From a virus (lineage: Duplodnaviria; Heunggongvirae; Uroviricota; Caudoviricetes): 64,000 bases of DNA. Positions 26,181 through 55,246 of the stretch are shown here, one piece after another. Position 1 is the stretch's first letter. Each line of letters begins with the position of its first letter. The stretch spans positions 18,526 through 82,525 of the IMG/VR virus record IMGVR_UViG_3300015615_001160; one strand, written 5' to 3'. Made by a program: the position numbers and the translations under genes. The notes below the pieces were generated by a model. The model was not told the origin of the DNA. It did not search any database and saw only the letters and a program-made list of their open reading frames with translations.

Positions 26181-26759
26181 TTAACCCAGGAAGTGCGCCC
26201 AGTCGGCTACGCCGTGCTGATTGCGGATGAACGCCGACGCGGGTTTCTCGCGCGGAGCGACCGGGTGCTGGTGCAGGCGCAGCCCGGCCTCGTGCGGCAG
26301 GCGGTCCGCTTTGGCGGAATTCACCTCGCGGTGCGCAAGCACGCAGTTCTCCCAGTTCGTCTTGCCGCCGCGGGAGCGGGGCACGACTTGGTCGATGTTG
26401 CCCTCCTTCGGCGAAAGCTTGCGGCCAGTGTATTGGCACACGCCGCCGTCGCGCTCCCAGATGCCGCGCATCCCAAAGCGCGGGCGGCGCATCGGCACGC
26501 GGGCGTAGTTCATCGCGATGACGACCGTCGGCACGCGCACTGGGCCGCGTGCGGTGTTTACTGCGTAGTCGCACTCCCGCACCGGCAGCGTGAGCCACGC
26601 ACTCCATTTCGTCGGCACAAACGCACCCTCGGAAATATCGAGCGCCGTGGCGGCGTCGGACGCCATCATGCAAAACGCCTCCGCGGGCGTCTTCACGTGG
26701 ATCGCCTGCCAATGCCGATTCAGCACCAGCACGGTCGTTTTGTTGAGGATGTTATTCAT
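26181..26759 (-). CDS. HNH endonuclease domain protein
   Basis: 192 aa. HNH core DQVVPRSRGGKTNWENCVLAHREVNSAKADR. It is the last gene of the minus-strand RtcB block and starts with MNN at 26757-26759. Confidence 0.7.
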   Translation of the reverse strand: MNNILNKTTVLVLNRHWQAIHVKTPAEAFCMMASDAATALDISEGAFVPTKWSAWLTLPVRECDYAVNTARGPVRVPTVVIAMNYARVPMRRPRFGMRGIWERDGGVCQYTGRKLSPKEGNIDQVVPRSRGGKTNWENCVLAHREVNSAKADRLPHEAGLRLHQHPVAPREKPASAFIRNQHGVADWAHFLG

Positions 26760-26870: not shown

Positions 26871-28274
26871 TTAGTCTTCCGCGCGGTCACCCGCCGGACA
26901 CATCTTCACGAGTTTCGGGTCGAAGCGGCCGAGCACATCGACGAGGTCCGTCTGCGCCGACATCACTTGCGCGATGTCCTTGTAGACGCCCGGCACTTCG
27001 TCGAGGCCGGCGGAGAGCAGTTCCACGCCAGCGGCGGCGAGTTGTTTCTTCACCGCGCTCCACGTGAACGACTGCAATGCCTTGCTGCGGCTCATCACCC
27101 GGCCCGCGCCGTGCGACGCGCTGTGCAGCGACTCGGGCGAGCCCTTGCCGCGTACGACATAGCCCGGCGATGCCATGGAACCCGGGATAACACCCAGCAC
27201 TCCGGCGCCCGCCGGCGTCGCGCCCTTGCGGTGCACGACGACCTCGCGCTCTTCCCCATTCACGACATGCGTTTCTTTCCACGCGAAGTTGTGATGGTTT
27301 TCGATGTCGAGGATCACATGCCCACCGAGCTTTTTCGCGATGTGCCGGTGGATGAGTGCGTGGTTCGCCGCTGCGTAACGGCCCATCAAGTTCATCGCGG
27401 CCCAGTATTCCTGGCCGTCGGCGTCGTCGAGCGAGAGCCACGCGAGGTGCTTGAGTTCCTTCGGCAGGTGCTCGTGGCGGGCCATCGCGCGCTTGCTGTA
27501 GACTTCGCACACCTTCGCGCCGGTTCCGCGCGAGCCCGAGTGCGAGAGTAGCGCGAGATATTCTCCCGGCTCGAGGCCCAGGGTCTGTGCCTGCTCCGCA
27601 TCGACGGTGAACGCACCGAACTCGACGAAGTGGTTGCCACTTCCGCTCGTGCCGAGCTGCGACCACGCCTTGTCGCGCAGTTGCTTCGTCACGGGCGCCA
27701 CGGACCAGTCTTCGTCCATCACGTCGTGCTCGCGGCGCTGCTTGAACTGGCAGCCCATACCGAACCGCGTCTCGTCTTCGAGGATGTTCGCGAGCCGATC
27801 GCGCTGGCCGGCGAGGGTGCTCGCCTTGCGGTCATACACCGTCAGCTTCATGCGGCACGCGATGTCCACGCCGACGGCGTAAGGAATCACCGCGTTGTCG
27901 GTCGCGAGCACACCGCCGATCGGCAGGCCGTAGCCCACGTGCGCATCCGGCATCAACGCGCCCGCCACCGCGACCGGCAGCGCACACGCATTCGCCATTT
28001 GCTTCACCGCCTCGGCTTCGAGCCCTTCGCCCCACTGACGCCACGGCGCGAGTTCTGCGCGCGGCGTAAACGGCGGGCGATAGATCGCCCGCGCCAGCGG
28101 TGCCCGCAGCTCGTCGGCAAAGAAAGCCGTTGGATTGGCGACGATGTTGAAGATTTCGCCCTCCAGTAACGCGCCGTCATTTCCCCGCGCGATGAAGTTC
28201 TGGATGAACTCGTGCGCAACTTGGATCGGCCCGCCCATCGGCACGCCGAGGCGGATGAGGTCTTTGGTGTTCAT
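26871..28274 (-). CDS. rtcB: RtcB RNA ligase (joins 3'-phosphate/2',3'-cyclic phosphate to 5'-OH)
   Basis: RtcB family signatures MPDAHVGYGLPIGG, GSGNHF, SASHGAGR. Start chosen at MNTKDLIRLGVPMGG (ATG 28272-28274). An in-frame upstream ATG at 28307 would add 11 aa. Confidence 0.9.
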   Translation of the reverse strand: MNTKDLIRLGVPMGGPIQVAHEFIQNFIARGNDGALLEGEIFNIVANPTAFFADELRAPLARAIYRPPFTPRAELAPWRQWGEGLEAEAVKQMANACALPVAVAGALMPDAHVGYGLPIGGVLATDNAVIPYAVGVDIACRMKLTVYDRKASTLAGQRDRLANILEDETRFGMGCQFKQRREHDVMDEDWSVAPVTKQLRDKAWSQLGTSGSGNHFVEFGAFTVDAEQAQTLGLEPGEYLALLSHSGSRGTGAKVCEVYSKRAMARHEHLPKELKHLAWLSLDDADGQEYWAAMNLMGRYAAANHALIHRHIAKKLGGHVILDIENHHNFAWKETHVVNGEEREVVVHRKGATPAGAGVLGVIPGSMASPGYVVRGKGSPESLHSASHGAGRVMSRSKALQSFTWSAVKKQLAAAGVELLSAGLDEVPGVYKDIAQVMSAQTDLVDVLGRFDPKLVKMCPAGDRAED

Positions 28275-28408
28275 AGTGAGTTGGTTTGAAAATGTGCGTC
28301 GCCGCACGCGGACACAATGCGAGTGCGCAGCGGTGTTTGTTCTTTTTGTCGGAAAGTCTGCAGCCGGGAAGGGTTCATGCCCTCCCCGGCTGTACCACTA
28401 CTAGTTCC

Positions 28409-29218
28409 TCAATCGAGGAAGGCGACGTTCGCCATGGTGCGGGTGGTGTTCTCGGTGTTCATCCAGACTTGGTGCCAGCCATGCAGTGTGATGGTGGCGT
28501 GGTCCGGGTGCCGTATCGTGCCGCGCGCATAGACTTGCGCGTCACGTGTTCGGCGTTGCCAGCCCCAGTGGTTGGCTTCTGGCTGCTCCACGATGAGCTG
28601 CTTGTAGTGCTGGACTGTGATCCCATTCGGGAAACGCGCGCAGACATACACTTGCTCACCGCCAGTGCGGAACAGCTCTGCCACCCAGTGCGGCTTGCCA
28701 CCACCACCGCGGCTGATCGGCTCGTGACGATGCACGAGCTTCCCATCCACGTGCAGGCCTGGCACTGGCACGAAGAACCATTCACCCTGACGGATGAAGG
28801 CTCGGTTGTGACGCCGCACGCGTTGCCCGGGGTTCAAGCGAGCCTGATCCGCGGCTTCGCGAACCTTCGGCGGCAGCAGGGCGAGCTTCGCCTGCAATAC
28901 CGTCGAGGCACCGCCTGGCACCGCGGCCACGAACCATTCCCGCTCATCGTGACCACAGAGGAAGCGATCATTCGCTGCCGGTGTCTTGACGAGCAGAAGG
29001 AGGTGTCGGTCGTGTCGGTCGCACTGGAGCACATCCGCATCGAGGTGCGTTTCGCGCTGGGCGCTCAACTGCATCTCGAAAACCTGACCGCGTTTATCGG
29101 CGGCCAGGTCGATGGCATAGTCCGCACGTCGGCGGCTCCACGGTAGATTTTCTGGACGAACGATCCGGAACCGCGCGCCCATGTGGGCGAACTGGTTCGC
29201 GATCGATTTAGAGTTCAT
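28409..29218 (-). CDS. Hypothetical protein (about 270 aa) between rtcB and the nucleotidyltransferase gene
   Basis: Start chosen at MNSKSIANQF (29218). The longer ORF running to 29434 would overrun the tRNA-Lys-like gene and a hairpin. Confidence 0.5.
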   Translation of the reverse strand: MNSKSIANQFAHMGARFRIVRPENLPWSRRRADYAIDLAADKRGQVFEMQLSAQRETHLDADVLQCDRHDRHLLLLVKTPAANDRFLCGHDEREWFVAAVPGGASTVLQAKLALLPPKVREAADQARLNPGQRVRRHNRAFIRQGEWFFVPVPGLHVDGKLVHRHEPISRGGGGKPHWVAELFRTGGEQVYVCARFPNGITVQHYKQLIVEQPEANHWGWQRRTRDAQVYARGTIRHPDHATITLHGWHQVWMNTENTTRTMANVAFLD

Positions 29219-29367: not shown

Positions 29368-29439
29368 GAAAAAGTGAACCCGTAGGGACTTGCACCCTCC
29401 TCAGCCGCTTAAGAGGCGGCGGCTTCGCTCTCAAAGCTT
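29368..29439 (-). tRNA. tRNA-Lys(CTT)-like gene; non-canonical, no encoded CCA
   Basis: Minus-strand sense gaacccg aa gctt..aagc c gccgc ctcttaa gcggc .. gaggg tgcaagt cccta cgggttc a. Perfect 7-bp acceptor and 5-bp anticodon stem; loop cT-CTT-aa. T-loop is TGCAAGT (G55) and position 8 is A. A paralog with a TTT anticodon lies at 32518-32589. Confidence 0.55.
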
Positions 29440-29472
29440 CGGGTTCTTAAATTAAAGCAGTGGGGAGCGATG

Positions 29473-29520: not shown

Positions 29521-30297
29521 TCAAGCGGAGAGCGCGTAACGGCGGAAGAAGCTATTCAGCTCCTCGACGCTGCCTGCGGCGTCGTCGCGCTCGTTGAGCG
29601 CTTCGAGTCTTGGCAGTTCGGCCTCGATGAAGCGCGAGAGCACTTCGACCGGCGGCGCGACCGCCAGTTCGTCGCCGGCCTGTTTGCGCGCGATGAGTTC
29701 ATCGAGCGCGGCGCGCACGTCGGATTCTTCGAGTACACTCTCGACGAGTTGTGCGAAGAGCATGGGCACCTGGCCGAGTTGGCGCTCGATCCAGCGGCAC
29801 GCTAGCAGCGGTCGGAAGACGTAGAGATACTTCTTCAGGCTCACCATCTCGCGCCCGCGGAGGTAGTCGCGCCAGTTGCCGAAGGCCATGTGCAGGTAGT
29901 GGGCGAAGCAGCGCCGCTGCGAATAGAATTCCTCCGCGAGCGCGCCAAACTCGGCACTGAAGACCGGCTCGTGGCGATACACGATCGGTGACTTCAGCCA
30001 CTCGAGCAGCGGCGGGTTGCTCTTGCGGAGCAGGCGCAACGCCTTGCGCAGCTCCCAACCGCTGACGTCGAGATCGTCGGCGAGTGGGCGCTCGATCACG
30101 TCGCGCCGATCCTCGACCGAGAGATACCAGTCGCGCCGATGCACGTAGAGAAAGCGCACGTCGTAGTCGCTGTCGCGCGAGGCAAAGCCCCACGCACGGC
30201 TGCCGCTCTCGCACGCGAAGAGCACGCGGACGTTTCGCTCGGCCTCGACCTGAGCGAGCGCGTCGCGGACGCGCTGGAAAACTTCGTTCCCATTCAT
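29521..30297 (-). CDS. Predicted nucleotidyltransferase (Pol-beta/MNT superfamily) in the RtcB neighbourhood
   Basis: 258 aa. GS...D.D motif in VLFACESGSRAWGFASRDSDYDVRFLYV. A helical C-terminal domain follows. Confidence 0.65.
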   Translation of the reverse strand: MNGNEVFQRVRDALAQVEAERNVRVLFACESGSRAWGFASRDSDYDVRFLYVHRRDWYLSVEDRRDVIERPLADDLDVSGWELRKALRLLRKSNPPLLEWLKSPIVYRHEPVFSAEFGALAEEFYSQRRCFAHYLHMAFGNWRDYLRGREMVSLKKYLYVFRPLLACRWIERQLGQVPMLFAQLVESVLEESDVRAALDELIARKQAGDELAVAPPVEVLSRFIEAELPRLEALNERDDAAGSVEELNSFFRRYALSA

Positions 30298-30900: not shown

Positions 30901-30930
30901 GGGGTGGATGGTGAAAGTTTCAGCCCGAAA

Positions 30931-30958
30931 CCCCGGTGGAGACAGAGATCCACCGGGG
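30931..30958. repeat. Palindromic (REP-like) element, copy 1
   Basis: ccccggtgga gacagaga tccaccgggg: a 10-bp perfect stem. It is near-identical in design to copy 2 at 31394. Confidence 0.5.
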
Positions 30959-31393
30959 TTGCGAGGTTACCGGATTGCAGCGCGAACCCGGTGTGCAAGT
31001 TCGGTCGGGCATGAAGTTCGGCGCCGGTGGAAGGGGTGATTTTTGGATTAGTACGATGGTTCGCGTGTTGATGGACGGATCATCAGCGTATCTCTCAGCA
31101 GGGCTCCGGGTCCGGCTCGCTCGCTCAGCAGAATCCGAAGCGGCACGCCCGCCAGCGATGTGCTGTGGGGCAACCGGTCGAACGGAGTTCCTTTGCGAGT
31201 ATGTCTCGCGATAGGCTGAGATCTCAGTCGAACAGCTCCGAGGAGGAAAACCCCGATGAGGATGACGCCATGACCCAGAATGGCTGGGTCGGGCATGGTG
31301 GGTGGGTGGGTTGGAAAATGAGCAAGCCCGCCCGATTGATCTCGGAAGGGATCGAGCGCGGAGAGCCGTGTGGGCGTTCGCGCGGAGGATCAC

Positions 31394-31458
31394 CCCGGCG
31401 GAGCGAGTTCTCCGCCGGGGCTTGTTCCTCCCTCGCAATTTTTTGTTTCACGTTTCGT
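31394..31458 (+). terminator. Palindromic element copy 2 plus a T-tract; a plus-strand rho-independent terminator-like structure
   Basis: ccccggcgga gcgagttc tccgccgggg followed by cttgttcctccctcgcaattttttgtttc. Confidence 0.4.
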
Positions 31459-32245
31459 CCGTCTCCGTTGCGGTTGGCTTGACGCCGCGCGTGTGGAGAG
31501 CGGGGAGCAGGGTCGACAGGTCGTTCATCACGAACGTCTGGCCTGCGGTGGACGCTTCGAGCGTTTGCAGGAAGCGGAGGGTGGCGAGTGCGGGCTGGCC
31601 TTCGATGAGGCGCGCGGCATTGGCGAGGTTGCGCAGCGCGGCGGATTCGGCGCGGGCGCGTTCGAGCGCGGCCTGGCCTTCCTGCTTCGCCTTGAGCACT
31701 TCGCTGAAGGCCTTGCGCAGTTCGCCCGGCAGCATCACATCGCGCACGTCGGCCGCGTGGACTTGCACGCCGACAGCTTCCGCTTGTGGCGCGATGAGTT
31801 CGCGGAGTTGCGCGCCGATGGCGACACGCTGCGTGAGCAGGGCTTCCATCGGCACTCCGGCAACGACGGTGCGAACGGCGGCCTGCGTGGCGTTGTAAAT
31901 GTGGGCCGCGTAGTTGTCCGCAGCCTGCACGCTCTTCGCCGCATCCACGATCTGCGTGGTGAGCACGACGCTGAGCTTCACGCCGACGTTGTCGGCGCTG
32001 AGCACTTCCTGGCCCGCGACCTGGAGGAGCGTCTTGCGGATGTCCACGGCGACGAGGCGGTAGTTGCGGCCCCAGCGGATGTGACGGCCCGCTGGCAGCG
32101 TGCTCACGAGCTGGCCTTCGTGGAAGAGCAGGCCCGCGTAGCCTTCGGTGACGATGAACTCGTGGTGGTAGCGAGTGCACGCAATATTAGTCACGAGCAA
32201 ACCGGCGCCAAGGAGAGCGACGATGAGAATATCTTGGGTGGTCAT
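31448..32245 (-). CDS. Band-7 / SPFH (stomatin-prohibitin) domain membrane protein
   Basis: 265 aa with an N-terminal TM segment (ILIVALLGAGLLVTNIA) followed by an SPFH domain. Band-7 proteins are recurrent partners of RtcB-type RNA repair operons. Confidence 0.8.
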   Translation of the reverse strand: MTTQDILIVALLGAGLLVTNIACTRYHHEFIVTEGYAGLLFHEGQLVSTLPAGRHIRWGRNYRLVAVDIRKTLLQVAGQEVLSADNVGVKLSVVLTTQIVDAAKSVQAADNYAAHIYNATQAAVRTVVAGVPMEALLTQRVAIGAQLRELIAPQAEAVGVQVHAADVRDVMLPGELRKAFSEVLKAKQEGQAALERARAESAALRNLANAARLIEGQPALATLRFLQTLEASTAGQTFVMNDLSTLLPALHTRGVKPTATETDET

Positions 32246-32278
32246 AGTGTGTGTTGGTTGGTGGTGGAAAGATTGCGA

Positions 32279-32292
32279 TCCGTGGCGGTGGC
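32279..32292. promoter_or_regulatory. Perfect 14-bp palindrome gcggtggccaccgc upstream of the band-7 start; a candidate operator
   Basis: Seen directly. It lies about 35-47 nt upstream of the minus-strand start at 32245. Confidence 0.3.
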
Positions 32293-32391
32293 CACCGCTT
32301 GTTCGCGGGCAGCGTGGCGTGAGCCGGCTGCGCAGGACGAAGTCGCGACTGCCTCTCGAGCAAGCTCGGGGCGGGTCACCGTCACGGATCG

Positions 32392-32420
32392 GTGGATGGA
32401 TGGGATTCGAACCCAGTCGG
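32392..32420 (-). other. tRNA 3'-end-like fragment with a canonical T-arm (GGGTTCGAATCCC) and no matching 5' acceptor strand
   Basis: Minus sense ...gactgggttcgaatcccatccatcca. No complementary acceptor strand was found within 120 nt. It may be an att-type remnant or a decayed unit. Confidence 0.3.
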
Positions 32421-32517
32421 CGGTGAGCCGATGACCAGCCGCCGGATGGTCGATGTGCAGGACCAGTCGCGGCGATGCCGCCTGGCTGCGGGTGTATTTT
32501 TCCGGCGGAAGAGGAAA

Positions 32518-32589
32518 TGAACCCGTAGGGACTTGCACCCTCCTCAGCCGCTTAAAAGGCGGCGGCTTCGCTCTCAAAGCTTCGGGTTC
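32518..32589 (-). tRNA. tRNA-Lys(TTT)-like; paralog of the 29368 unit
   Basis: Identical to the 29368 unit except the anticodon loop is cT-TTT-aa. Confidence 0.55.
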
Positions 32590-32594
32590 GGAAA

Positions 32595-32672
32595 TGGATA
32601 GTCGCGGCAGGATTTGCACCCGCACTGGCTGCGTTCTCGACGCAGTGCCTCTTCTCGTTGGGCTACGCGACC
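32595..32672 (-). tRNA. tRNA-like, Leu anticodon GAG, class-I architecture
   Basis: Acceptor ggtcgcg/cgcgact; anticodon stem ctgcg/cgcag with loop tcGAGaa (C33); T-arm gcggg TGCAAAT cctgc. Confidence 0.45.
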
Positions 32673-32753
32673 GTCGGTGATTTTGGAAATAGTCCTCCGG
32701 CATTGGGTGGCCGAAGGCCTGGAGCAAGTCTCGCGAAGCGAGACGCGTGGAAA

Positions 32754-32828
32754 GGCTCCCGTGGTGGGACTCGCACCCACTAGGACTCGTGTGAAAGACG
32801 AGACGCTCGGCTCTTTGCATTCACGGGC
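32754..32828 (-). tRNA. tRNA-Glu(TTC)-like
   Basis: Anticodon stem ctcgt/acgag with loop cT-TTC-ac; T-arm gtggg TGCGAGT cccac. Confidence 0.45.
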
Positions 32829-32840
32829 ATTTGCTGAAAG

Positions 32841-32931
32841 TGGCGGAACGCGGAGGGCATGCTCCCCAACCCGCAACGCGGATCGATCTCCTTAGCACGG
32901 AGTCCCGGCACGCTCGTCCGGTTCACGTTCC
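32841..32931 (-). tRNA. tRNA-Ser(GCT)-like, class II with a long variable arm
   Basis: Acceptor ggaacgt/gcgttcc + G + CCA; anticodon loop gT-GCT-aa; variable arm ccgc gtt gcgg; T-loop AGCATGC. Confidence 0.5.
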
Positions 32932-32937
32932 ACATCG

Positions 32938-33011
32938 TGCCCGCGGCGAGATTTGCACTCGCACTGTCCGAGGTTTGAGCTCGGTGGCTCTGCTCGTTGG
33001 CCTACGCGGGC
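32938..33011 (-). tRNA. tRNA-like, Leu anticodon CAA, class I
   Basis: Acceptor gcccgcg/cgcgggc perfect; anticodon stem ccgag/ctcgg with loop cT-CAA-ac; T-arm gcgag TGCAAAT ctcgc. Confidence 0.5.
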
Positions 33012-33022
33012 GTGGAAAAAAA

Positions 33023-33094
33023 TGCTCCCGGTCGGAGTCGCACCGACACTGCGCGGGGTTTAAGTCCGCTGCCTCTGCGTTGGGCTACGGGAGC
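33023..33094 (-). tRNA. tRNA-like, Leu anticodon TAA, class I
   Basis: Acceptor gctcccg/cgggagc perfect; loop cT-TAA-ac; T-arm gtcgg TGCGACT ccgac. Confidence 0.45.
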
Positions 33095-33103
33095 TTTGAA
33101 AAA

Positions 33104-33990
33104 TGGGACTGCGGGTTGAGACTAAACCCACAGGCATCATCTCCTTCGCGCGGATTATTCGAGGCTTGCGGCCTCTATTCCCGGCTTGTCCTCGGCGACT
33201 GACCCGAAAGTCACATCGACGAGCGATGACACGATTGCCTTTGTTAACGAGGTGGCATTTCCCCGTAGATGGTCAGCTACTCTACCTCCGTCCTACCGCC
33301 AGCCTTGCGGGCTGTGAGAGGCGCGACCCTCGACGTGCGGACTCGGGTAAACTTCGCGGGCCTTGCGGGCCGTGGAAGTCTCCATTGCCTTGCGGCTGAA
33401 GAATTAAATCGTTTTCGCTGACGACCGGCGGCGTCTTTGCATTTTTTTGGCGATGCAGGATTTCTCCTGCGACCTCCGGCTTTCGAAGCCGACGCTCTGT
33501 TCTGAGCTAATCGATAACCCACCACGATGTGCGCCGCCTGTCGTGCCGAATCCTTTTGGGACTCGATATGCGACACACCGTGTGACTTTCCCTTGCGGGT
33601 ACTCATCGTGTCCTGGCGATCGCGTCCGCCTCCTTGCCTTTTGGGCTCGGCAGCGTCCGCTTCCGCGCGACATGCAGCAGGCGCCTCGTTTGCGGCTTGG
33701 CGTCTACTGCTCCCCTTGTTCCCTCAACACTGGACGTTTTGCTGGAAAGGCACGCCTTGCGAAGGGGCGTTCCTGCTCCTACGGAGTTACCCTCGGAACA
33801 GTTTCCCTTTCCCGTCGTCATGTATACCTCGGCCGCATTTGACTGCGACAAGGCTATGGGACCTGGGTTTGCTTGAATGTCCTCGAGTGAACGAGGCGCG
33901 GGCGTGTGGGCCGTTTCCGCTTTTGGCCGTCTCGCGACGGTTTATCTTTCATCCCTTGCGGGACCTGGAGATCAAGCTCCCCAGTTTTTA
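33104..33990 (-). ncRNA. About 880-bp non-coding segment inside the array with a recurring CCTTGCGGG motif; candidate large structured RNA and/or decayed tRNA units
   Basis: No convincing ORF and no regular spacers. CCTTGCGG(G) occurs at 33304, 33361, 33385, 33590, 33764 and 33953. At least one tRNA-like unit (33448-33516) is embedded. Confidence 0.3.
33448..33516 (-). tRNA. tRNA-like unit with a good D-arm (gctc/gagc) and a T-loop-like anticodon loop ttCGAaa
   Basis: The acceptor is imperfect and the assignment is uncertain. Confidence 0.25.
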
Positions 33991-34018
33991 AATAGTGAAA
34001 TGGGTGATAGTAAGAAAG

Positions 34019-34095
34019 TGGTCCCGGCGGCAGGAGTTGCACCCGCACTGGCTCCGGTCTGAGCGGAGTGTCTCTGCTTGTTGGACTACGCCGGG
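34019..34095 (-). tRNA. tRNA-like, Leu anticodon CAG, class I
   Basis: Acceptor cccggcg/cgccggg perfect + A + CCA; anticodon stem ctccg/cggag with loop cT-CAG-ac; T-arm gcggg TGCAACT cctgc. Confidence 0.5.
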
Positions 34096-34104
34096 AAAAA
34101 GGAG

Positions 34105-34180
34105 TGGTGCTCTCGGCAGGAGTTTCGCCCGCAACCTCCGCGTTCGAAGCGCGGCACTCTAGACATTGAGCTACGAGAGC
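34105..34180 (-). tRNA. tRNA-Arg(TCG)-like
   Basis: Acceptor gctctcg/cgagagc; D-stem gctc/gagt; anticodon stem ccgcg/cgcgg with loop cT-TCG-aa; CCA encoded. Confidence 0.5.
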
Positions 34181-34191
34181 ATGGATGGAAA

Positions 34192-34268
34192 TGGCTGCCC
34201 CGGATGGATTCGCGCCATCAACCTCCCGGTTCAGAGCCGGGCGCTCTCGCTGTTTGAGCTACAGGGCA
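34192..34268 (-). tRNA. tRNA-Gln(CTG)-like
   Basis: D-stem gctc/gagc; anticodon stem cccgg/ccggg with loop cT-CTG-aa; T-arm gatgg CGCGAAT ccatc; disc G + CCA. Confidence 0.55.
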
Positions 34269-34273
34269 ACATG

Positions 34274-34345
34274 ATCCGCCAACCGGAGTTGCACCGGTCT
34301 CTCGCCGATACCAGCGGCGTGCGTCGCTCACAACGCTTTGGCGGA
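34274..34345 (-). tRNA. tRNA-Thr(GGT)-like
   Basis: Acceptor tccgcca/tggcgga perfect; D-stem gcgt/acgc; anticodon stem cgccg/cggcg with loop cT-GGT-at; T-arm accgg TGCAACT ccggt. Confidence 0.5.
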
Positions 34346-34355
34346 GTTTGAAATG

Positions 34356-34429
34356 ATCAGGCACCTCGGTGCTGCCCCGAGTATCTCGCCGATCCGAACG
34401 GCGCGGATTGCTGTCTTCCTCGTGCCTGA
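34356..34429 (-). tRNA. tRNA-Pro(CGG)-like
   Basis: Acceptor tcaggca/tgcctga perfect; anticodon stem cgccg/cggcg with loop tT-CGG-at; T-arm ctcgg GGCAGCA ccgag. Confidence 0.5.
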
Positions 34430-34431
34430 AT

Positions 34432-34572
34432 GAAATAACTGGAGCCACGGGGAATGCTCGCGCGGCAGCGCTTCGACACGAGTCGTGGAGCGCTGGCTGC
34501 ATAGCGGCAGGAGCCGCAATCGCACCCCGATCTGCGCAATGCCAATGCGTCGTCTGGCTATTGGACTATGGC
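34432..34572 (-). ncRNA. About 140-nt structured repeat. It has a nested-hairpin 5' half and a tRNA-like 3' half (possible Ala GGC loop). It is a paralog of the element at 35940-36080
   Basis: The ggagcgctggctgcat and caatcgcacc blocks are shared with the 35940 copy. There is a nested hairpin cagcgct...cgac acga gtcg...agcgctg. Confidence 0.3.
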
Positions 34573-34579
34573 CCCGACA

Positions 34580-34655
34580 TGGACGCGCGCCCCGGACTCG
34601 CACCGGGTAATTCGGTTTTGCAGACCGATGGTTCGACGGCTTTGCCTTGCGCGCG
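34580..34655 (-). tRNA. tRNA-Cys(GCA)-like
   Basis: Acceptor cgcgcgc/gcgcgcg; anticodon stem tcggt/accga with loop cT-GCA-aa; T-arm cccgg TGCGAGT ccggg; T + CCA. Confidence 0.5.
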
Positions 34656-34667
34656 TTTTTTTGTGAT

Positions 34668-34743
34668 GGGGGTGACCGTCGGGATTCGCACCCGAATCTT
34701 CTGGTTCACGGCCAGAAACTCTGACTCTTGAGCTACGGCCACA
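34668..34743 (-). tRNA. tRNA-His(GTG)-like
   Basis: Acceptor gtggccg/cggtcac (one G.U); anticodon stem tctgg/ccaga with loop cc-GTG-aa (C33); T-arm tcggg TGCGAAT cccga. Confidence 0.4.
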
Positions 34744-34766
34744 GCTTCTTCCTGTGTTGTGGAAAG

Positions 34767-34843
34767 TGGATCCTCCGGCCGGCGCTGCCCCGGCATGGTC
34801 TTCTTTACGAGAGAAGTGCATTGCTGGCCTCTGCCACGGAGGA
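34767..34843 (-). tRNA. tRNA-Thr(CGT)-like
   Basis: Acceptor tcctccg/cggagga perfect; anticodon stem cttct/agaag with loop cT-CGT-aa; T-arm gccgg GGCAGCG ccggc; T + CCA. Confidence 0.5.
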
Positions 34844-34853
34844 ACGGGATGAA

Positions 34854-34930
34854 TGGTGCTCCCGCGAGGACTTGCACCTCGAGCTTCCGCCTTCGCAGGG
34901 CAGCGTGCAGGACTCTTACACTTCGGGAGC
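34854..34930 (-). tRNA. tRNA-Arg(GCG)-like
   Basis: Acceptor gctcccg/cgggagc; anticodon stem ctgcc/ggcgg with loop cT-GCG-aa; T-arm cgagg TGCAAGT cctcg; A + CCA. Confidence 0.5.
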
Positions 34931-34939
34931 TAATGAAAA

Positions 34940-35014
34940 TGGTGCGCCATGCCGGTGCCGCCCCGGCGCTGTGTCTTTGGAAGAGACGCGTGCTCGCTGT
35001 TACACCAATGACGC
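34940..35014 (-). tRNA. tRNA-Gly(TCC)-like
   Basis: Acceptor gcgtcat/atggcgc; anticodon stem cgtct/agaca with loop cT-TCC-aa; T-arm gccgg GGCGGCA ccggc; A + CCA. Confidence 0.5.
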
Positions 35015-35024
35015 TTTGGAAAAA

Positions 35025-35099
35025 TGGTGGCTGCTTCCGGTATCGCGCCGGACTCCCCTCGGCTTCAGCGAGGTGCTAATCTATCTCAGCTACACAGCC
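35025..35099 (-). tRNA. tRNA-Phe(GAA)-like
   Basis: D-stem gctg/tagc; anticodon stem cctcg/cgagg with loop cT-GAA-gc; T-arm tccgg CGCGATA ccgga; A + CCA. Confidence 0.5.
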
Positions 35100-35153
35100 G
35101 TTCGACAGGCTCACGGCCTGCGGCCCTTCGACGAAGTTTCGTCTTTGGGCAAA
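35100..35153. other. Short non-tRNA spacer with two small hairpins (ggcc tgc ggcc; gacga agtt tcgtc followed by tttggg)
   Basis: It does not fold as a cloverleaf. It may be an intra-array processing or terminator-like element. Confidence 0.3.
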
Positions 35154-35154
35154 G

Positions 35155-35228
35155 TGGTCCCTCCGCGCGGTATCGCGCCGCGGTCTCTCGCTTATCGGGC
35201 GAGGGCTCTGCTTTTGAGCTACGGAGGG
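35155..35228 (-). tRNA. tRNA-Ile(GAT)-like
   Basis: Acceptor ccctccg/cggaggg perfect; D-arm gctc aaaagca gagc; anticodon stem ctcgc/gcgag with loop cc-GAT-aa (C33); T-arm cgcgg CGCGATA ccgcg; A + CCA. Confidence 0.5.
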
Positions 35229-35237
35229 TTTTGGAAA

Positions 35238-35311
35238 TGGTCGCTCGAGGTGGTAACGCTCCACCGTTTGTCGGATGTCGGCCGGCCGTTCTGCTTTTGA
35301 ACTATCGAGCG
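35238..35311 (-). tRNA. tRNA-Val(GAC)-like
   Basis: Acceptor cgctcga/tcgagcg + A + CCA; D-arm gttc aaaagca gaac; loop cc-GAC-at; T-arm ggtgg AGCGTTA ccacc. Paralog of the next unit, with compensatory stem changes. Confidence 0.5.
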
Positions 35312-35322
35312 ATGCGAAAGAA

Positions 35323-35396
35323 TGGTCGCCCGACGTGGTAACGCTCCACGGTCTTCCGGATGTGAGCCGGCCGTTCTCCTTTTGAACTATCAGGCG
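35323..35396 (-). tRNA. tRNA-Val(CAC)-like
   Basis: Acceptor cgcctga/tcgggcg; T-stem cgtgg/ccacg (compensatory relative to ggtgg/ccacc in the previous unit); loop cT-CAC-at. Confidence 0.5.
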
Positions 35397-35409
35397 AAAA
35401 TGAAAATGA

Positions 35410-35481
35410 TACCCGCGCCCGGTAATGCTCCGGGGTTTTCTGATGAAGAATCAGCCGTGCTGACGATTGCACCATGCGGGT
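35410..35481 (-). tRNA. tRNA-like unit, anticodon region ambiguous (possibly CTT)
   Basis: D-stem gtgc/gcac perfect; T-arm cccgg AGCATTA ccggg. The anticodon stem and loop can be drawn two ways (ttCTTca with a 4-bp stem, or a 5-nt loop). Confidence 0.3.
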
Positions 35482-35489
35482 TTTTGAAA

Positions 35490-35564
35490 TGGCTCCTCCC
35501 CTTGGCATCGCACCAAGCTCACACCGCTTAACAGGCGGGCCGCACACTCTGTGCGTTGAGAGGA
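35490..35564 (-). tRNA. tRNA-Asn(GTT)-like
   Basis: Acceptor tcctctc/gggagga; D-stem cgca/tgcg; loop cT-GTT-aa; T-arm cttgg TGCGATG ccaag; G + CCA. Confidence 0.45.
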
Positions 35565-35575
35565 ATGTGTCGTTT

Positions 35576-35650
35576 TACTCCCGGCAGGAGTTGCACCTGC
35601 GTAGTTCCATTTAGAAGATGGATGCCTATGTACTGCTCGGCCACGGGAGC
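35576..35650 (-). tRNA. tRNA-Arg(TCT)-like
   Basis: Anticodon stem tccat/atgga perfect with loop cT-TCT-aa; T-arm gcagg TGCAACT cctgc; no CCA. Confidence 0.45.
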
Positions 35651-35661
35651 GTGGATAGAAA

Positions 35662-35736
35662 GGGTCGCGCGCCTCGGTGCTGCCCCGAGTGTCTCCTCGT
35701 CCCAAGCGAGGCGGGTTGCTGTCTCCCTCGCGCGCG
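35662..35736 (-). tRNA. tRNA-Pro(TGG)-like
   Basis: Acceptor cgcgcgc/gcgcgcg; anticodon stem cctcg/cgagg with loop cT-TGG-ga; T-arm ctcgg GGCAGCA ccgag. Confidence 0.45.
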
Positions 35737-35759
35737 TCACGGTGTCGTGTCGTGTGAAA

Positions 35760-35836
35760 TGGCGGCCTGTGCGGGCTTTGCTCCCGCGCCCTTCCGCTCG
35801 ACAGGCGGCTGCTCTTCGTGGCTGAGCTAACAGGCC
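35760..35836 (-). tRNA. tRNA-Asp(GTC)-like
   Basis: Acceptor ggcctgt/acaggcc perfect; D-stem gctc/gagc; loop cT-GTC-ga; T-arm gcggg AGCAAAG cccgc; G + CCA. Confidence 0.5.
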
Positions 35837-35846
35837 ATGGTGAAAT

Positions 35847-35935
35847 TGGTGGGTTGTGTCGGTAATGCTCCGACGCTGGTCCGGCTGGACATCCGCTTTA
35901 CAGGCGGCTCGCGATCTTTACGTGACTAACAACCC
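35847..35935 (-). tRNA. tRNA-Tyr(GTA)-like, class II
   Basis: Acceptor gggttgt/acaaccc perfect + A + CCA; loop cT-GTA-aa; variable-arm hairpin gtcc agcc ggac; T-arm gtcgg AGCATTA ccgac. Confidence 0.5.
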
Positions 35936-35939
35936 GAAA

Positions 35940-36160
35940 TGGTTGCGGGACGTGGAATGCGTGGCGCGGTAGCGCCGTTGCTGGACGACGCGGAGCGCTG
36001 GCTGCATGGACGCCGGAGCGTCAATCGCACCACGATACGAGGGCGTATGAAACTCTCTTGGTTTTGCCGCTCCGGCGGCTATGCGAAGTGCGCTCCGCGT
36101 CCATGGTGTGAACGTGCTTGCGCGCGAGTGCATTCAACCTTCCCGCGATTGAATGGTGAA
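35940..36160 (-). ncRNA. Structured repeat(s) not resolved as tRNA; includes the paralog of the 34432 element
   Basis: Shares ggagcgctggctgcat...caatcgcacc with 34432-34572. Contains hairpins ggcgc ggta gcgcc and gcgctccg/cggagcgc. Confidence 0.3.
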
Positions 36161-36161
36161 A

Positions 36162-36236
36162 TGGTGGACCGCCACGGCTTTGCACCGTGCTCTTCCGCTT
36201 GCGAGGCGAATGACCTCCTGAATGATCGAGCGGCCC
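36162..36236 (-). tRNA. tRNA-Ala(CGC)-like
   Basis: Acceptor gggccgc/gcggtcc; anticodon stem ttcgc/gcgga with loop cT-CGC-aa; T-arm cacgg TGCAAAG ccgtg; A + CCA. Confidence 0.45.
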
Positions 36237-36244
36237 AGGAAAAT

Positions 36245-36321
36245 TGGTAGCGGGGGCCGGATTTGAACCGGCGAATTGACGGCTTATGAGGCCGTTGCCT
36301 TAACCACTTGGCGACCCCGCA
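36245..36321 (-). tRNA. tRNA-Met(CAT); the most canonical unit (GG in the D-loop, TTCAAAT T-loop), with a 1:72 mismatch (initiator-like)
   Basis: gcggggtcgccaaGTGGTTAAggca acggc cT-CAT-aa gccgt ... gccgg TTCAAAT ccggc ccccgct A CCA. Confidence 0.6.
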
Positions 36322-36333
36322 GTCTGTGGAAAG

Positions 36334-36408
36334 TGGCACAGCGTCTCGGTGCTGCCCCGAGCCCGCGGAGTTTTGGAGACTCTGCTGCGCGAGCTGGCGC
36401 CCGCTGTG
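36334..36408 (-). tRNA. tRNA-like unit (acceptor and T-arm clear; body unresolved)
   Basis: Acceptor cacagcg/cgctgtg; T-arm ctcgg GGCAGCA ccgag. Confidence 0.3.
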
Positions 36409-36426
36409 TTTCACGATTGGAAAAAT

Positions 36427-36500
36427 TGGTGCGGTCAGCCGGACTTGCACCGGCATCCTCTGATTGGCACTCAGACATCCTTCTCTTGAACGATGACCGC
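36427..36500 (-). tRNA. tRNA-Gly(GCC)-like
   Basis: Acceptor gcggtca/tgaccgc perfect + A + CCA; anticodon stem tctga/tcaga with loop gT-GCC-aa; T-arm gccgg TGCAAGT ccggc. Confidence 0.5.
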
Positions 36501-36502
36501 AT

Positions 36503-36544
36503 AGGAGCGGCGCGGGCTGCGATTCTGTGCGCACCCGCGCCGCT
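36503..36544. promoter_or_regulatory. 12-bp perfect-stem hairpin at the upstream (right) end of the array
   Basis: gagcggcgcggg ...17 nt... cccgcgccgctc. Confidence 0.3.
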
Positions 36545-37621
36545 CTTCTGACAAAAAAGAACAAACACCGCTGCCTCCCTTCCGACATAGTCGGGGACGC
36601 ACCCGCAGGATTGTTTCACGGCGGATCTTTCGGTGTTTCAGGCACACCTCCCGGTGCACGGATATGATAGTTATCCATGCGAAGCCTCTGGACTGGAAAA
36701 GCCAGGGGCGAGAAATCAGACAATGCAGACCTGCGAACGAGTGATAGCTATCGACTCGCTTGACAGTTTCACCATGAGCTGCCACCATTCGGTGGTTACT
36801 AACTCACGATCGTCTCGGCTAGGGACTTATCTGGATTGGTGACCGATTTCACCCCGTCGTCAGTTGCCGCTGGCGGCGGGGTTTTTATCGCCCACGTGGT
36901 GGTTTGAAATGTGGTGTTCGTTCGGTGGGGTTTTGTTGTGGGGTTAGGAGGCGGCAAGGCCGCGGCTGGAGAAAGTGGGAAAAACCCTCGGAAAATGAGA
37001 AACCCTGCTGGGCTTTTCGGCCGAGCAGGGTTCTCGAAATCTACGGATCTGGATGAGATCGTGAGTTACCTGCTGGCCTCCTTGGTAATGTTTTCTTCGG
37101 CGAAACTCGGTCGCGAATTGGTTGCCTGGGCATCGGACGTATAGCCGACCCAACCGTTGCCACGGAGCATACCCGAGCAACGCAACCTGTCGGTCGCCTG
37201 CGTATGTATGGGTGATGTTCTTAGTGGCTTCATTGGTAGTGAATGTGACGTTTGATAGACCCGTAAAATGAATGGGTCAATAGCAATTTTTAAAAAAGTT
37301 TAAGGGGAGATATGTTAGTGATGGATAACAAATGTGGAAATGCTCCGGCGCTGGAGAGCGTGAGGATATGAATTTTCATGGCCCAAGACGAGTGCAGTCT
37401 GCGGTGTGTCTTATGCGACTTAATTCGGCGGGATATTTGCGGGAATGGATGATAGTTCGAGATCGAACTTTAATCTGTCTGGGCGGCGAGAATCGAGTGT
37501 CTGTCGCAGGCGCGCGAGTGGCCTGGCTCTGGCAGCCGGATATGCGGCGACCGCTGGGCGTGTCGATGGCCACTACAGTTTCGTGGTTTGAGCACACGGA
37601 TGAAGCCTCCGTGTGTATCCC

Positions 37622-45455: not shown

Positions 45456-45466
45456 GTCTCTGGAGG

Positions 45467-46240: not shown

Positions 46241-46372
46241 GAGATTGCGAGGCTGGATCGGGTGGCGGAGCTGGCATCCGATTCTAGCCCCTCGGACTGA
46301 TGTGTATTTGTTCCCTTATCAGAACAAAACCTTGTCGTTTCGCTCAGTGGTAGATATTACGCGCTGAGTCCT

Positions 46373-47632: not shown

Positions 47633-47690
47633 ACGCCGCGCGAGACTGGCTGTTTTGCTGCCGCTTCTTGATTCGCCTCCCCGATGTAAG

Positions 47691-55240: not shown

Positions 55241-55246
55241 TTCCCC

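Follow-up and report, generated by a model that had tools for sequence, protein, structure and literature searches.

Long mobile tRNA arrays with rtcB and HNH neighbours and with GOLLD RNA have already been described. Such L-arrays are present in Verrucomicrobia, are horizontally transferred and lie in rtcB/HNH neighbourhoods (PMC8421152), and the pCC7120delta trn operon of Anabaena PCC 7120 (Santamaria-Gomez et al. 2021, PMC8421152) produces tRNAs that are induced by translational stress and aminoacylated in vivo. Phage tRNAs accompanied by RtcB, RlaP and Thg1 are regarded as counter-defence (PMC7824862), and GOLLD occurs near tRNA islands, with a linker that can itself hold tRNAs (PMC12286853). 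Here we describe a tRNA array within a 64,000-nucleotide window, by which we mean the whole stretch of DNA analysed. We consider it likely that this block represents a long tRNA operon of the L-array type that spreads horizontally, belonging to a Verrucomicrobiota-specific family that passes between phages and chromosomes as one module and supplies spare, repairable tRNAs.

The dense minus-strand array of about 4 kb proposed by a sequence-only reading is present where it had been placed and is somewhat larger than claimed, with 32 units at 32.5-36.5 kb, 30 of them uninterrupted and two interrupted. ARAGORN detected 14 units in the block by default and 22 at a 90% threshold, while 17 array units plus a nested tRNA-like unit reached the gathering score of Rfam RF00005, and one further array unit scored 28.4 bits. 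A strict cloverleaf scanner returned 25 units on the minus strand and one on the plus strand, against a mean of 0.25 units per shuffle in 20 dinucleotide shuffles. A covariance model trained on units from other loci only (R1) matched 27 block units and an isolated tRNA-Lys(CTT), all at E ≤ 1.2e-6, as well as the 5' portion of Ala(GGC), one of the two interrupted units (E 3e-5), the nested unit (E 2e-4), Tyr (E 2.5e-3) and Trp (16.7 bits, E 0.11); across the rest of the 64 kb it gave just two matches at E~1, none of them credible. The near-complete anticodon repertoire read earlier was also extended, as the addition of Trp(CCA), a second Ala(GGC) and a second, initiator-like Met(CAT) means that all 20 amino acids are represented. 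GOLLD, the linkage to RlaP, RtcB, HNH and SPFH genes, the non-canonical elbow and the mild erosion of this copy had gone unnoticed in that reading.

All array units lie on the minus strand. The first is tRNA-Gly(GCC) (36427..36500; T-loop TGCAAGT; ARAGORN default, Rfam, scanner, R1), followed by the weakest unit, a tRNA-Trp(CCA)-like sequence recognised by folding and manual parsing (36334..36407; G73, CCA, T-loop GGCAGCA, aberrant D-arm), and by tRNA-Met(CAT) (36245..36321; ARAGORN default, Rfam), whose GG D-loop and TTCAAAT T-loop make it the sole canonical-elbow unit of the window array. Next come Ala(CGC) (36162..36236; G3:U70; ARAGORN 90%, scanner, R1), the interrupted initiator-like Met(CAT) (35940..36147; C1xA72, minimal D-arm), recognised against its uninterrupted orthologues from L006, L011 and L086, and Tyr(GTA), a class II unit with a long variable arm (35847..35935; ARAGORN 90%, R1). 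The series continues with Asp(GTC) (35760-35836), Pro(TGG) (35666-35736), Arg(TCT) (35576-35650), Asn(GTT) (35490-35564), Lys(CTT) (35410-35481), Val(CAC) (35323-35396), Val(GAC) (35238-35311), Ile(GAT) (35155-35228), Phe(GAA) (35025-35099), Gly(TCC) (34940-35014), Arg(GCG) (34854-34930), Thr(CGT) (34767-34843), His(GTG) (34669-34742), Cys(GCA) (34581-34655), the interrupted Ala(GGC) (34440..34575; G3:U70), Pro(CGG) (34358-34428), Thr(GGT) (34273-34345), Gln(CTG) (34192-34268), Arg(TCG) with T-loop CGAAACT and a GU-type D-loop (34105-34180) and the class I Leu(CAG) (34019-34095). Beyond GOLLD lie the class I units Leu(TAA) (33023-33094) and Leu(CAA) (32937-33011), the class II Ser(GCT) with an imperfect T-arm (about 32843-32933), Glu(TTC) (32757-32828), two non-tRNA hairpins (32690-32745), Leu(GAG) (32599-32672) and the terminal Lys(TTT) (32518-32589). 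The isolated minus-strand Lys(CTT) (29374..29446; ARAGORN default, R1) duplicates this terminal unit and differs from it solely at anticodon position 34.

Selection on RNA structure, as opposed to pseudogene decay, had been argued from paralog pairs and is borne out more broadly: among BLAST-only homologues, 338 of 369 changed stem pairs (92%) still pair, 222 of these through double compensatory changes. The Val and Leu pairs do show compensation, but the Lys CTT/TTT pair (29446 versus 32589) is uninformative because it differs at the anticodon only. Anticodon loops carry U33 and purine-37, and the parsed units retain the features by which bacterial synthetases recognise their tRNAs, namely Ala G3:U70, Pro C1:G72/A73, Gln U1:A72/G73, Cys U73, His C73, G73 in Asp, Asn, Glu, Trp and Ser units and long arms in Tyr and Ser. 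Judged by sequence, purifying selection acts on the array units, which are true L-shaped tRNAs.

Structurally, these units make up a lineage of their own, distinct from housekeeping tRNAs. G55 replaces U55 in 514 of 545 array tRNAs (94%), A18-G19 stands in place of G18-G19, and every 'Leu' unit lacks the long arm and is class I, whereas housekeeping tRNAs on array-bearing contigs have a canonical elbow. The D-loop and T-loop covary among unique sequences, GC occurring with AG (396/405), GA with GU (18/21) and UC with GG (20/21). We found no description in the literature of a remodelled elbow across an entire tRNA set, and both this covarying elbow and the class I 'Leu' units appear to be new. 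Because the altered elbow no longer offers a site for the near-universal Psi55, and often none for T54 and Gm18, handling by the ribosome, RNase P or EF-Tu could be impaired, and with the long arm absent the charging of the 'Leu' units is putative.

Upstream of the first tRNA lies a structured leader (36501..36768, minus strand; alignment A1, RNAalifold) composed of invariant blocks, a covarying hairpin and a long-range stem followed by a U-run, with a GC hairpin (36505-36545) adjoining tRNA-Gly. With nhmmer the leader is recovered at full length in Chthoniobacterales arrays, and Prosthecobacter-type arrays have its core at their 5' end; a search for a sigma-70-like promoter found none. Just upstream of rtcB, nhmmer and direct reading place the 24-nt leader core GCAGCGGTGTTTGTTCTTTTTGTC in inverted form (28308..28356, plus strand), an arrangement kept in about 25 loci. 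A second structured RNA (32246..32517, minus strand) separates the array from the SPFH gene and is present in all SPFH-bearing loci; it combines a long hairpin domain with a canonical T-arm-like hairpin, GGGTTCGAATCCC, at about 32400-32420, and the supposed array tRNA at 32460-32392 proved to be this hairpin. RNAalifold on seven sequences gave 68 pairs, 20 with compensatory changes. Neither the leader nor the SPFH-upstream RNA matched Rfam, and both the leader, with its core inverted upstream of rtcB, and the tRNA-like RNA preceding SPFH appear to be new.

About 930 nt of the block is GOLLD RNA and not tRNAs (33113..34010, minus strand, between Leu(CAG) and Leu(TAA)), matching the full RF02032 model (1-416) at 165.4 bits (E 1e-45; gathering score 150), with a fold z-score of -3.7. 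Its conserved 3' domain spans 33113-33583, and we infer 33584 to about 34010 as the extent of the variable 5' domain; nested in the linker is a tRNA-like unit with a weak acceptor stem and the anticodon loop TTCGAAA (33447-33516, minus strand). The element resembles the GOLLD of Mycobacterium and phage tRNA arrays (Weinberg 2009; Morgado 2020; Kretsch 2025, PMC12286853) in passing the Rfam threshold over the full model, in being about 900 nt long and variable in its 5' half, and in being embedded among tRNAs with a tRNA-like unit in its linker, but its host belongs to Verrucomicrobiota and the copy is chromosomal, outside any recognisable prophage. Related elements occur in L024 (160 bits), L034, L035, L039, L040 and L043. 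As its slot varies among arrays of the verrucomicrobial family and it is missing from most Chthoniobacterales arrays, GOLLD here looks like an optional, movable insert, which is a further difference from the known element.

Downstream of the array, on the same strand, follow an SPFH/Band-7 protein gene (31448..32245; PF01145, E 2e-30), which at least 12 loci carry between the array and RlaP, a 172-aa ORF (30920-31438), a GNAT acetyltransferase (30373-30900), the RNA-ligase-associated 3'-end nucleotidyltransferase RlaP (29521..30297; PF10127, E 6e-92), the isolated Lys(CTT), a conserved 269-aa ORF (28409..29218), the 3'-phosphate/5'-OH RNA ligase RtcB (26871..28307; PF01139, E 4e-87; NCBIfam) and an HNH endonuclease (26181..26759; Pfam, PHROG, synteny matrix), a conserved partner of RlaP-RtcB. 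RlaP homologues in Chthoniobacterales are 80-91% identical. RtcB-centred RNA repair systems with an SPFH/Band-7 scaffold and a cognate tRNA-like RNA were reportedly set out by Burroughs and Aravind in 2016; compared by description, they share RtcB, RlaP, SPFH and a structured RNA with a T-arm-like hairpin directly upstream of SPFH, whereas the window system is fused to a full tRNA operon.

About 40 loci in Verrucomicrobiota carry the array-RlaP-RtcB-HNH module, cultured Prosthecobacter fluviatilis among them, as do phage contigs. Read from sequence, the module opens with the leader and about 30 tRNAs, among which GOLLD may or may not be present, and continues with RlaP, RtcB and HNH; some loci add SPFH and its own RNA before RlaP, and some the 269-aa protein between RlaP and RtcB. 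The suspected affinity to phages and mobile elements holds, since the syntenic array lies in phage contigs, between terminase (TerL) and portal genes (L002/L004, L086), and in many chromosomal contexts with flanking genes that differ from locus to locus; the synteny is also seen in an IMG/VR contig. Like the Anabaena operon (PMC8421152), the family has tens of close, non-periodic same-strand tRNA genes, horizontal transfer, HNH and rtcB genes nearby and class I 'Leu' units. It differs in its elbow (canonical in 15/16 parsed Anabaena units, 94% G55 with A18 here), in its ~270-nt structured leader, fixed RlaP-RtcB-HNH synteny and frequent SPFH with its own RNA, and in sharing a 24-nt inverted core and not 9-nt direct repeats as regulatory sequence. 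With the phage clusters of T4 and jumbo phages (Iyer et al. 2021, PMC7824862; anticodon-nuclease evasion, PMC10264068) it shares tRNAs beside RtcB and RlaP, and its phage-borne versions include L002, which adds Thg1 and a kinase. However, most verrucomicrobial copies are chromosomal, the set is near-complete instead of a few targeted isoacceptors, and the deviation from host tRNAs lies at the elbow, not the anticodon loop; in the jumbo-phage cluster of Xanthomonas phage X1, 27/27 units are canonical.

A spare, repairable supply of tRNAs is the most likely function. In this model, transcription would begin upstream of the leader and yield a single precursor that includes GOLLD, from which RNase P and 3' processing enzymes of the host would release the tRNAs. 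The resulting pool would serve when housekeeping tRNAs have been cut or run short, for example through anticodon nucleases, toxins or translational stress. Damaged tRNAs would be mended by the enzymes encoded alongside, RtcB resealing 3'-P/5'-OH breaks and RlaP (activity: PMC12776372) restoring trimmed 3' nucleotides, while in the phage version the kinase and Thg1-like enzyme would restore 5' ends. HNH probably helps the module to spread by homing. No nuclease that targets tRNAs was recognised in the neighbourhood.

The copy in the window lies in a chromosome and not in a prophage, and it is mildly eroded. A mobile repeat of about 65 nt splits two units: in Ala(GGC) it sits exactly after the T-loop (65 nt, 34453-34517), and the 3' end reads GTT where the intact orthologue (L002 7368-7437) has CCA, while Met(CAT) carries a 67-nt copy in its T-loop (35956-36022) and an inverted copy within a D-loop insert of ~72 nt (about 36061-36133). 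Encoded CCA, earlier ascribed to most units, is found in only ~19-20/31, compared with roughly 85% in relatives, and at least six units have lost a CCA that orthologues keep; with two disrupted units in addition, this copy may be only partly functional. Together with a G1xA72 mismatch in Glu(TTC), an anticodon switch from the relatives' Glu(CTC) to Lys(CTT) at 35410-35481, the aberrant Trp D-arm and the absence of phage structural genes near the array, this damage could mark an inactive, decaying relic of a phage-borne cluster, its conserved structure reflecting selection in phages and not in this chromosome. We consider that unlikely: 27/32 units score E ≤ 1.2e-6 against a model from other genomes, the leader, the RNA ahead of SPFH, GOLLD and every module ORF remain intact, and a CCA-adding enzyme can supply the missing ends. 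Moreover, chromosomal copies without phage genes predominate, across two orders, and we therefore argue that the module is maintained in cells.

Slightly less probable still is that the units are tRNA-shaped decoys, or substrates or cofactors of the repair machinery, that soak up tRNA-targeting nucleases without decoding. The non-canonical elbow, the class I 'Leu' units and the tight linkage of repair enzymes and SPFH scaffold are consistent with such a role, and a sponge has been proposed for the Anabaena operonic tRNAs (PMC8421152). Yet a decoy has no need for anticodons for 20 amino acids, U33/purine-37 loops or synthetase identity elements, the Anabaena tRNAs are charged in the cell, and covariation at 19-56 retains the outer pair of the elbow, which the ribosome and RNase P use.

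It is very improbable that the ~65-nt inserts are introns that an endonuclease cuts out, the exons then being joined by RtcB in the manner of archaeal tRNA splicing. In favour of this reading, RtcB is adjacent, inserts lie in the T-loop, the D-loop and, for L012, the anticodon loop, L054 shares the T-loop insert of the Met unit, and within that unit the copies in D-loop and T-loop are complementary to each other. Against it, no bulge-helix-bulge motif or splicing endonuclease gene was found, orthologous tRNAs of most genomes have no insert, the repeat is found in either orientation and is not confined to tRNAs, since copies abut or truncate RlaP or lie near rtcB, and the insert-bearing units of the window show added damage in the form of lost CCA and an anticodon-stem mismatch.

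The dense minus-strand array of about 30 tRNA-like genes claimed in the sequence-only reading is real and comprises 32 units, a result on which ARAGORN, RF00005, a strict cloverleaf scanner and a dedicated covariance model (R1) all bear. With default settings ARAGORN returned 14 minus-strand tRNAs between 32.5 and 36.5 kb together with an isolated Lys(CTT) at 29374-29446, and at a 90% threshold it returned 22 in the block. RF00005 recovered the array in part: 17 of the 32 units and an additional nested unit reached its gathering threshold (29 bits), while the rest, one of them at 28.4 bits, fell below it, these being mainly units with GGCAGCA- or AGCATTA-type T-loops. Scanning for the canonical cloverleaf (acceptor stem of 7 bp, T and anticodon stems of 5 bp each, 7-nt anticodon loop, U33 and a purine at position 37) gave 25 minus-strand units in the block and one on the plus strand, against a chance expectation of 0.25 (mean over 20 dinucleotide shuffles). 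R1 was trained on 61 array units taken exclusively from other loci and searched across the whole window with filters off. At E <= 1.2e-6 it matched 27 units of the block as well as the isolated Lys(CTT), placing most units clear of background. One interrupted Ala(GGC) was matched over its 5' part (E 3e-5); weaker matches were obtained for the nested unit (E 2e-4), a class-II Tyr (E 2.5e-3) and a weak Trp (E 0.11). Outside the array units R1 gave two matches at E~1 and nothing more in 64 kb. The total of 32 also counts Ser(GCT), which is class II, and a Met that is heavily interrupted.

Read along the minus strand, the units are Gly GCC, Trp CCA, Met CAT, Ala CGC, Met CAT (interrupted), Tyr GTA, Asp GTC, Pro TGG, Arg TCT, Asn GTT, Lys CTT, Val CAC, Val GAC, Ile GAT, Phe GAA, Gly TCC, Arg GCG, Thr CGT, His GTG, Cys GCA, Ala GGC (interrupted), Pro CGG, Thr GGT, Gln CTG, Arg TCG, Leu CAG, then a GOLLD RNA, followed by Leu TAA, Leu CAA, Ser GCT, Glu TTC, Leu GAG and Lys TTT. 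All lie on one strand within 4 kb, separated by spacers of mostly 8-15 nt, with a non-repeating anticodon order that covers 20 of the 20 amino acids. A scan for a sigma-70 promoter found none.

The array is an L-array with GOLLD and rtcB/HNH neighbours, a kind that is already known, and L-arrays have been reported in the phylum Verrucomicrobia (Santamaria-Gomez 2021, PMC8421152). Downstream on the minus strand it is followed, in order, by genes for an SPFH/Band-7 protein, a 172-aa ORF, a GNAT acetyltransferase and RlaP (PF10127), the isolated Lys(CTT), a conserved 269-aa ORF, RtcB and HNH, an rtcB and HNH neighbourhood typical of L-arrays. An RNA ligase and a nucleotidyltransferase are both present (RtcB, E 4e-87; RlaP, E 6e-92), and no end-healing kinase/phosphatase or cyclase (RtcA, Pnkp) was found in the window. 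RtcB is a 3'-phosphate RNA ligase. RlaP adds 1-2 nt at damaged RNA 3' ends and is required to restore aminoacylation of over-trimmed, religated tRNA (PMC12776372).

The surroundings of this module, in a window of 60-68% G+C, are bacterial. An ORF at 54-25841 on the plus strand, whose end lies about 340 nt from the HNH gene in convergent orientation, encodes 8,595 aa of Gly/Thr/Asn-rich beta-strand repeats with a PEP-CTERM-like C-terminus, and its product looks like a giant surface adhesin of the type seen in Verrucomicrobia; the coding of such a cell-surface protein indicates that the window is bacterial chromosome. On the opposite side of the array lie ExoD and then resolvase, integrase and restriction-like genes, with a probable mobile or defence island at 44311-61886 (a serine resolvase, a Sel1-repeat protein, a tyrosine integrase with N-terminal DUF6900, a 1,109-aa SNF2/DEAD helicase, a PLD-family nuclease and a 1,009-aa Type III restriction-like helicase-endonuclease). 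Pfam and PHROG scans place host or defence-island genes on the array flanks, and homologues of TerL, portal and protease were absent from the window. We therefore reject the view of the window copy as a prophage, since it has no phage structural or packaging genes.

Comparison with related loci bears out the affinity with phages and mobile elements that had been proposed from sequence. Metagenomes labelled Chthoniobacterales are rich in RlaP homologues of 80-91% identity, and a scan restricted to one genome per species yielded 80 loci. In about 40 Chthoniobacterales and Verrucomicrobiales loci, including that of the cultured Prosthecobacter fluviatilis KACC 12649 (L043), a same-strand array lies directly upstream of RlaP with gene order conserved, whereas the non-verrucomicrobial RlaP loci (Burkholderia, Xanthomonas and others) have no array. 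A tblastn matrix identified RlaP-RtcB-HNH as the constant core, with SPFH in at least 12 loci and phage genes in L002, L004 and L086 only. In the metagenomic contigs L002 and L004 the module has a lambda-type large terminase gene on one side and a portal gene on the other, and it also includes genes for an AAA_33 kinase and a Thg1-like enzyme, both limited to the phage version; in L086, an IMG/VR contig, it adjoins the same terminase. Elsewhere the host genes flanking the module vary from locus to locus. This combination of phage and varied chromosomal contexts argues that the module is mobile and mostly chromosomal, and the array may be a horizontally transferred addition to the housekeeping tRNA set. 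Megablast and sensitive blastn searches of 50,697 phage records found no match to the array or to GOLLD, save one 80-nt similarity to a tRNA-Ile. As a separate observation, ARAGORN flagged in the Burkholderia/Paraburkholderia RlaP loci an unusual tRNA-like element whose 'anticodon' has 2 nt and whose position, about 2.9 kb upstream of RlaP, is constant (about 7115-7165 in L057-L060, L064, L066, L071, L073, L074 and L081), which may be a Y-RNA-like or tRNA-like cofactor RNA.

The array units have been maintained as structured RNAs, and the proposal that they are selected rather than decaying pseudogenes is upheld. Homologues of 23 window units, gathered by BLAST alone, differ from the window at 369 stem pairs, of which 338 still pair (222 double and 116 single changes) and 31 are broken. 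The related claim of compensatory change within paralogue pairs holds for Val CAC/GAC and Leu GAG/CAA, where the changes are truly compensatory, but not for Lys CTT/TTT. Here the isolated Lys(CTT) at 29374-29446 is a duplicate of the Lys(TTT) at 32518-32589, and the two differ at position 34 only, which indicates a recent duplication followed by an anticodon change. In addition, the 'Lys(CTT)' of the window at 35410-35481 is the orthologue of a Glu(CTC) in relatives (for example at 6092-6161 of L002), and anticodon switching has evidently taken place within the array family. The bacterial rules of synthetase identity are well established, and the marks they rely on are kept: G3:U70 in Ala, C1:G72 with A73 in Pro, U1:A72 with G73 in Gln, U73 in Cys, C73 in His and G73 in Asp, Asn, Glu, Trp and Ser, along with long variable arms in the Tyr and Ser units. 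These marks point indirectly to units that may be charged and decode.

What is not kept is the canonical elbow. Psi55 is the most universally conserved tRNA modification, and G18-U55 and G19-C56 are the key contacts of the D-loop/T-loop corner (PMC7912444); the known exceptions are tRNAPyl and mitochondrial tRNAs (PMC7609411). In a survey of 545 array units (458 unique) from verrucomicrobial loci, the elbow nucleotides G18 G19 and U54 U55 C56 were not retained as a set: position 55 is G in 514 units (94%), position 56 is C in 94%, and the D-loop carries GG in just 54 (10%). Housekeeping tRNAs on the same contigs are canonical (TTC, GG). The Leu-anticodon units are also unusual, with a 5-nt variable region in 85 of 86.

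The two loops vary together. Of 405 units with GC at positions 55-56, 396 carry AG in the D-loop; of 21 with GA, 18 carry GU and none AG; and of 21 with UC, 20 carry GG. The D-loop AG occupies a fixed column block of the multiple alignment. This covariation of positions 18-19, and of 19 with 56, with the T-loop indicates that the elbow contact is retained in an altered form, in which the 19-56 pair is kept and alternates between G-C and U-A. The G18.Psi55 contact is, by all appearances, replaced, mostly by A18.G55. No account of such an elbow came to light in the searchable literature. It is not a general trait of L-arrays or of phage tRNA clusters, an idea that we rejected because the elbow is canonical in 15 of 16 parsed units of the Anabaena L-array on pCC7120delta (L088), the remaining one being of GGCAGTA type, and in all 27 units of the jumbo-phage cluster of Xanthomonas phage X1, unlike the mostly G55 verrucomicrobial arrays. 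The Anabaena and verrucomicrobial arrays do have class-I Leu units in common. In L088, which spans 49.8-52.4 kb of pCC7120delta from Nostoc PCC 7120, we noted class-I Leu(TAG) and Leu(TAA) and an Ile(GAT) with a GGCAGTA T-loop and a D-loop without GG; this Ile(GAT), in the verrucomicrobial elbow style, hints at a shared ancestry of L-array tRNAs.

A tRNA-free stretch of 928 nt separates Leu(CAG) from Leu(TAA) in the window and folds better than its shuffles as a whole (z = -3.7). Its 3' 471 nt are GOLLD (RF02032), matching model positions 1-416 of 416 at 165.4 bits (gathering threshold 150; E 1e-45), with the hallmarks of large size, a variable 5' domain, adjacency to tRNAs and a tRNA in the linker, here a tRNA-like unit with a weak acceptor stem nested at 33447-33516. 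The sequence-only reading had overlooked this RNA inside the block. Association with tRNA islands, tRNAs in the linker and presence in Mycobacterium tRNA arrays have been published for GOLLD, and another member forms a homo-oligomeric 14-mer nanocage by cryo-EM (PMC12286853; Morgado 2020 cited therein for the former). GOLLD also occurs at gathering score in L024, and five Prosthecobacter-type arrays hold GOLLD-related sequence in another slot, between Glu TTC and Leu GAG; the remaining Chthoniobacterales arrays sampled have none. An insert of about 740 nt in the phage arrays L002 and L086 was considered as a second large RNA and rejected, as it contains a plausible ORF of about 235 aa, has no more structure than expected (z -1.9) and matches nothing in Rfam. 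That ORF, rich in Trp, Arg and Tyr, is embedded in the Arg(TCG)-Leu(CAG) interval (L002 7909-8624; L086 about 8600-9335). The L002 array is also broken by an IS110 transposase at 4794-6029.

Two further structured RNAs, neither with a match in Rfam 15, accompany the array. The first is a leader of about 270 nt at its head (window 36501-36768, minus strand; L002 3387-3653; L006 6102-6367; L086 5519-5786), which is conserved in phage and chromosomal arrays and whose core also heads the Prosthecobacter-type arrays (L024-L043). It combines blocks of invariant sequence with a covarying hairpin, a long-range stem that is itself invariant and leads into a U-run, and a GC hairpin directly adjoining tRNA-Gly; the stem and U-run resemble a terminator or attenuator, and the leader may represent a new cis-regulatory RNA. 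The 24-nt core of the leader, GCAGCGGTGTTTGTTCTTTTTGTC, is found again in reverse complement some 75 nt upstream of rtcB, in about 25 loci, and in the window the core lies at 28308-28356 (plus strand) and 36535-36575 (minus strand). This core could be a shared operator, which would parallel the repeats that the Anabaena trn operon has in common with its HNH gene and with rtcB, or it could be a site of pairing between leader RNA and rtcB mRNA. The second RNA, upstream of SPFH, occupies 270 nt after Lys(TTT) (window 32246-32517, minus strand; L013 7609-7872; L053 925-1192; L019 8493-8750). It is kept wherever SPFH occurs; its fold includes a canonical T-arm-like hairpin and is backed by 20 compensatory pairs. 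Burroughs and Aravind in 2016 reportedly described an SPFH/Band-7-associated tRNA-like RNA in RNA-repair systems, and the RNA of the window is probably the same. A T-arm fragment at 32392-32460 belongs to this conserved RNA, and its interpretation as the att-site remnant of a host tRNA was accordingly dropped.

The most likely function of the module would be the supply of spare tRNAs, coupled to tRNA repair, when housekeeping tRNAs are damaged or translation is under stress. What takes this array beyond an ordinary L-array is the family-wide remodelling of the elbow, supported by covariation, as are the pair of structured RNAs that lack annotation and the sequence link between leader and rtcB. 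Spare tRNA sets are emerging as a major route by which phages and cells survive tRNA-cutting immunity and toxins. To our knowledge, the escape changes recognised so far map to the anticodon loop, whereas the present set of some 30 tRNAs, kept across two Verrucomicrobiota orders and their phages, deviates as a whole from host tRNAs at the elbow. A more speculative model, which we consider rather unlikely as a whole, is that the array would form a structurally 'private' tRNA pool. Its rebuilt elbow, with A18.G55 for G18.Psi55 and without the T54, Psi55 and Gm18 sites, would leave it unseen by, or resistant to, a tRNA nuclease that reads the elbow or T-loop, or a modification-dependent checkpoint, that disables housekeeping tRNAs. 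Under the same model the leader would be coupled to rtcB expression through the complementary 24-nt core, making the module a translation-rescue cassette, complete in itself and self-regulating, that moves back and forth between phages and cells.

The divergent elbow raises elbow-directed tRNA attack as a concrete hypothesis. Loss of the Psi55 site alongside a D-loop/T-loop contact that still covaries also amounts to a natural experiment on the need for the elbow in translation, and the array tRNAs are a candidate orthogonal tRNA scaffold. Because P. fluviatilis KACC 12649 is in culture, the array, GOLLD, the two unannotated RNAs and the RlaP/RtcB link are all open to experiment. The long-standing question of what GOLLD does might also be approached through a module that is genetically defined and a host that can be cultured.

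The window copy itself shows signs of erosion when compared with its relatives. An encoded CCA is kept in about 19-20 of 31 window units, as opposed to roughly 85% elsewhere, and at least six units lack a CCA that all close relatives retain. Ala(GGC) carries a 65-nt insert directly 3' of the T-loop where the L002 orthologue is intact, and the initiator-like Met, a unit with C1xA72 and a minimal D-arm, has a copy of the same repeat in its T-loop and an inverted copy inside a D-loop insert. Intact Met orthologues (L006 6702-6775, L011 3534-3607, L086 6225-6298; C1xA72 in L006 and L011) have a minimal D-arm with a 4-bp stem and a 3-nt loop, leaving no D-loop to reach the T-loop. We considered the inserts as archaeal-type tRNA introns and discarded this reading, because the repeat occurs in either orientation and outside tRNAs; the folds contained no bulge-helix-bulge motif, and no EndA-like splicing endonuclease gene was present. 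Copies of this 65-70-nt repeat lie at 34453-34517, 35956-36022 and about 36061-36133 in the window, and in other loci at L054 4759-4826, L026 about 1345-1410, L012 2978-3048 and L069/L078 about 10210-10295. They occupy the T-loop, D-loop or, in L012, the anticodon loop of tRNAs, and also sites beside or inside RlaP and rtcB. With two subterminal hairpins and forward copies preceded by ...ATT or ...GTT, the repeat reads as a miniature mobile element of Chthoniobacterales.
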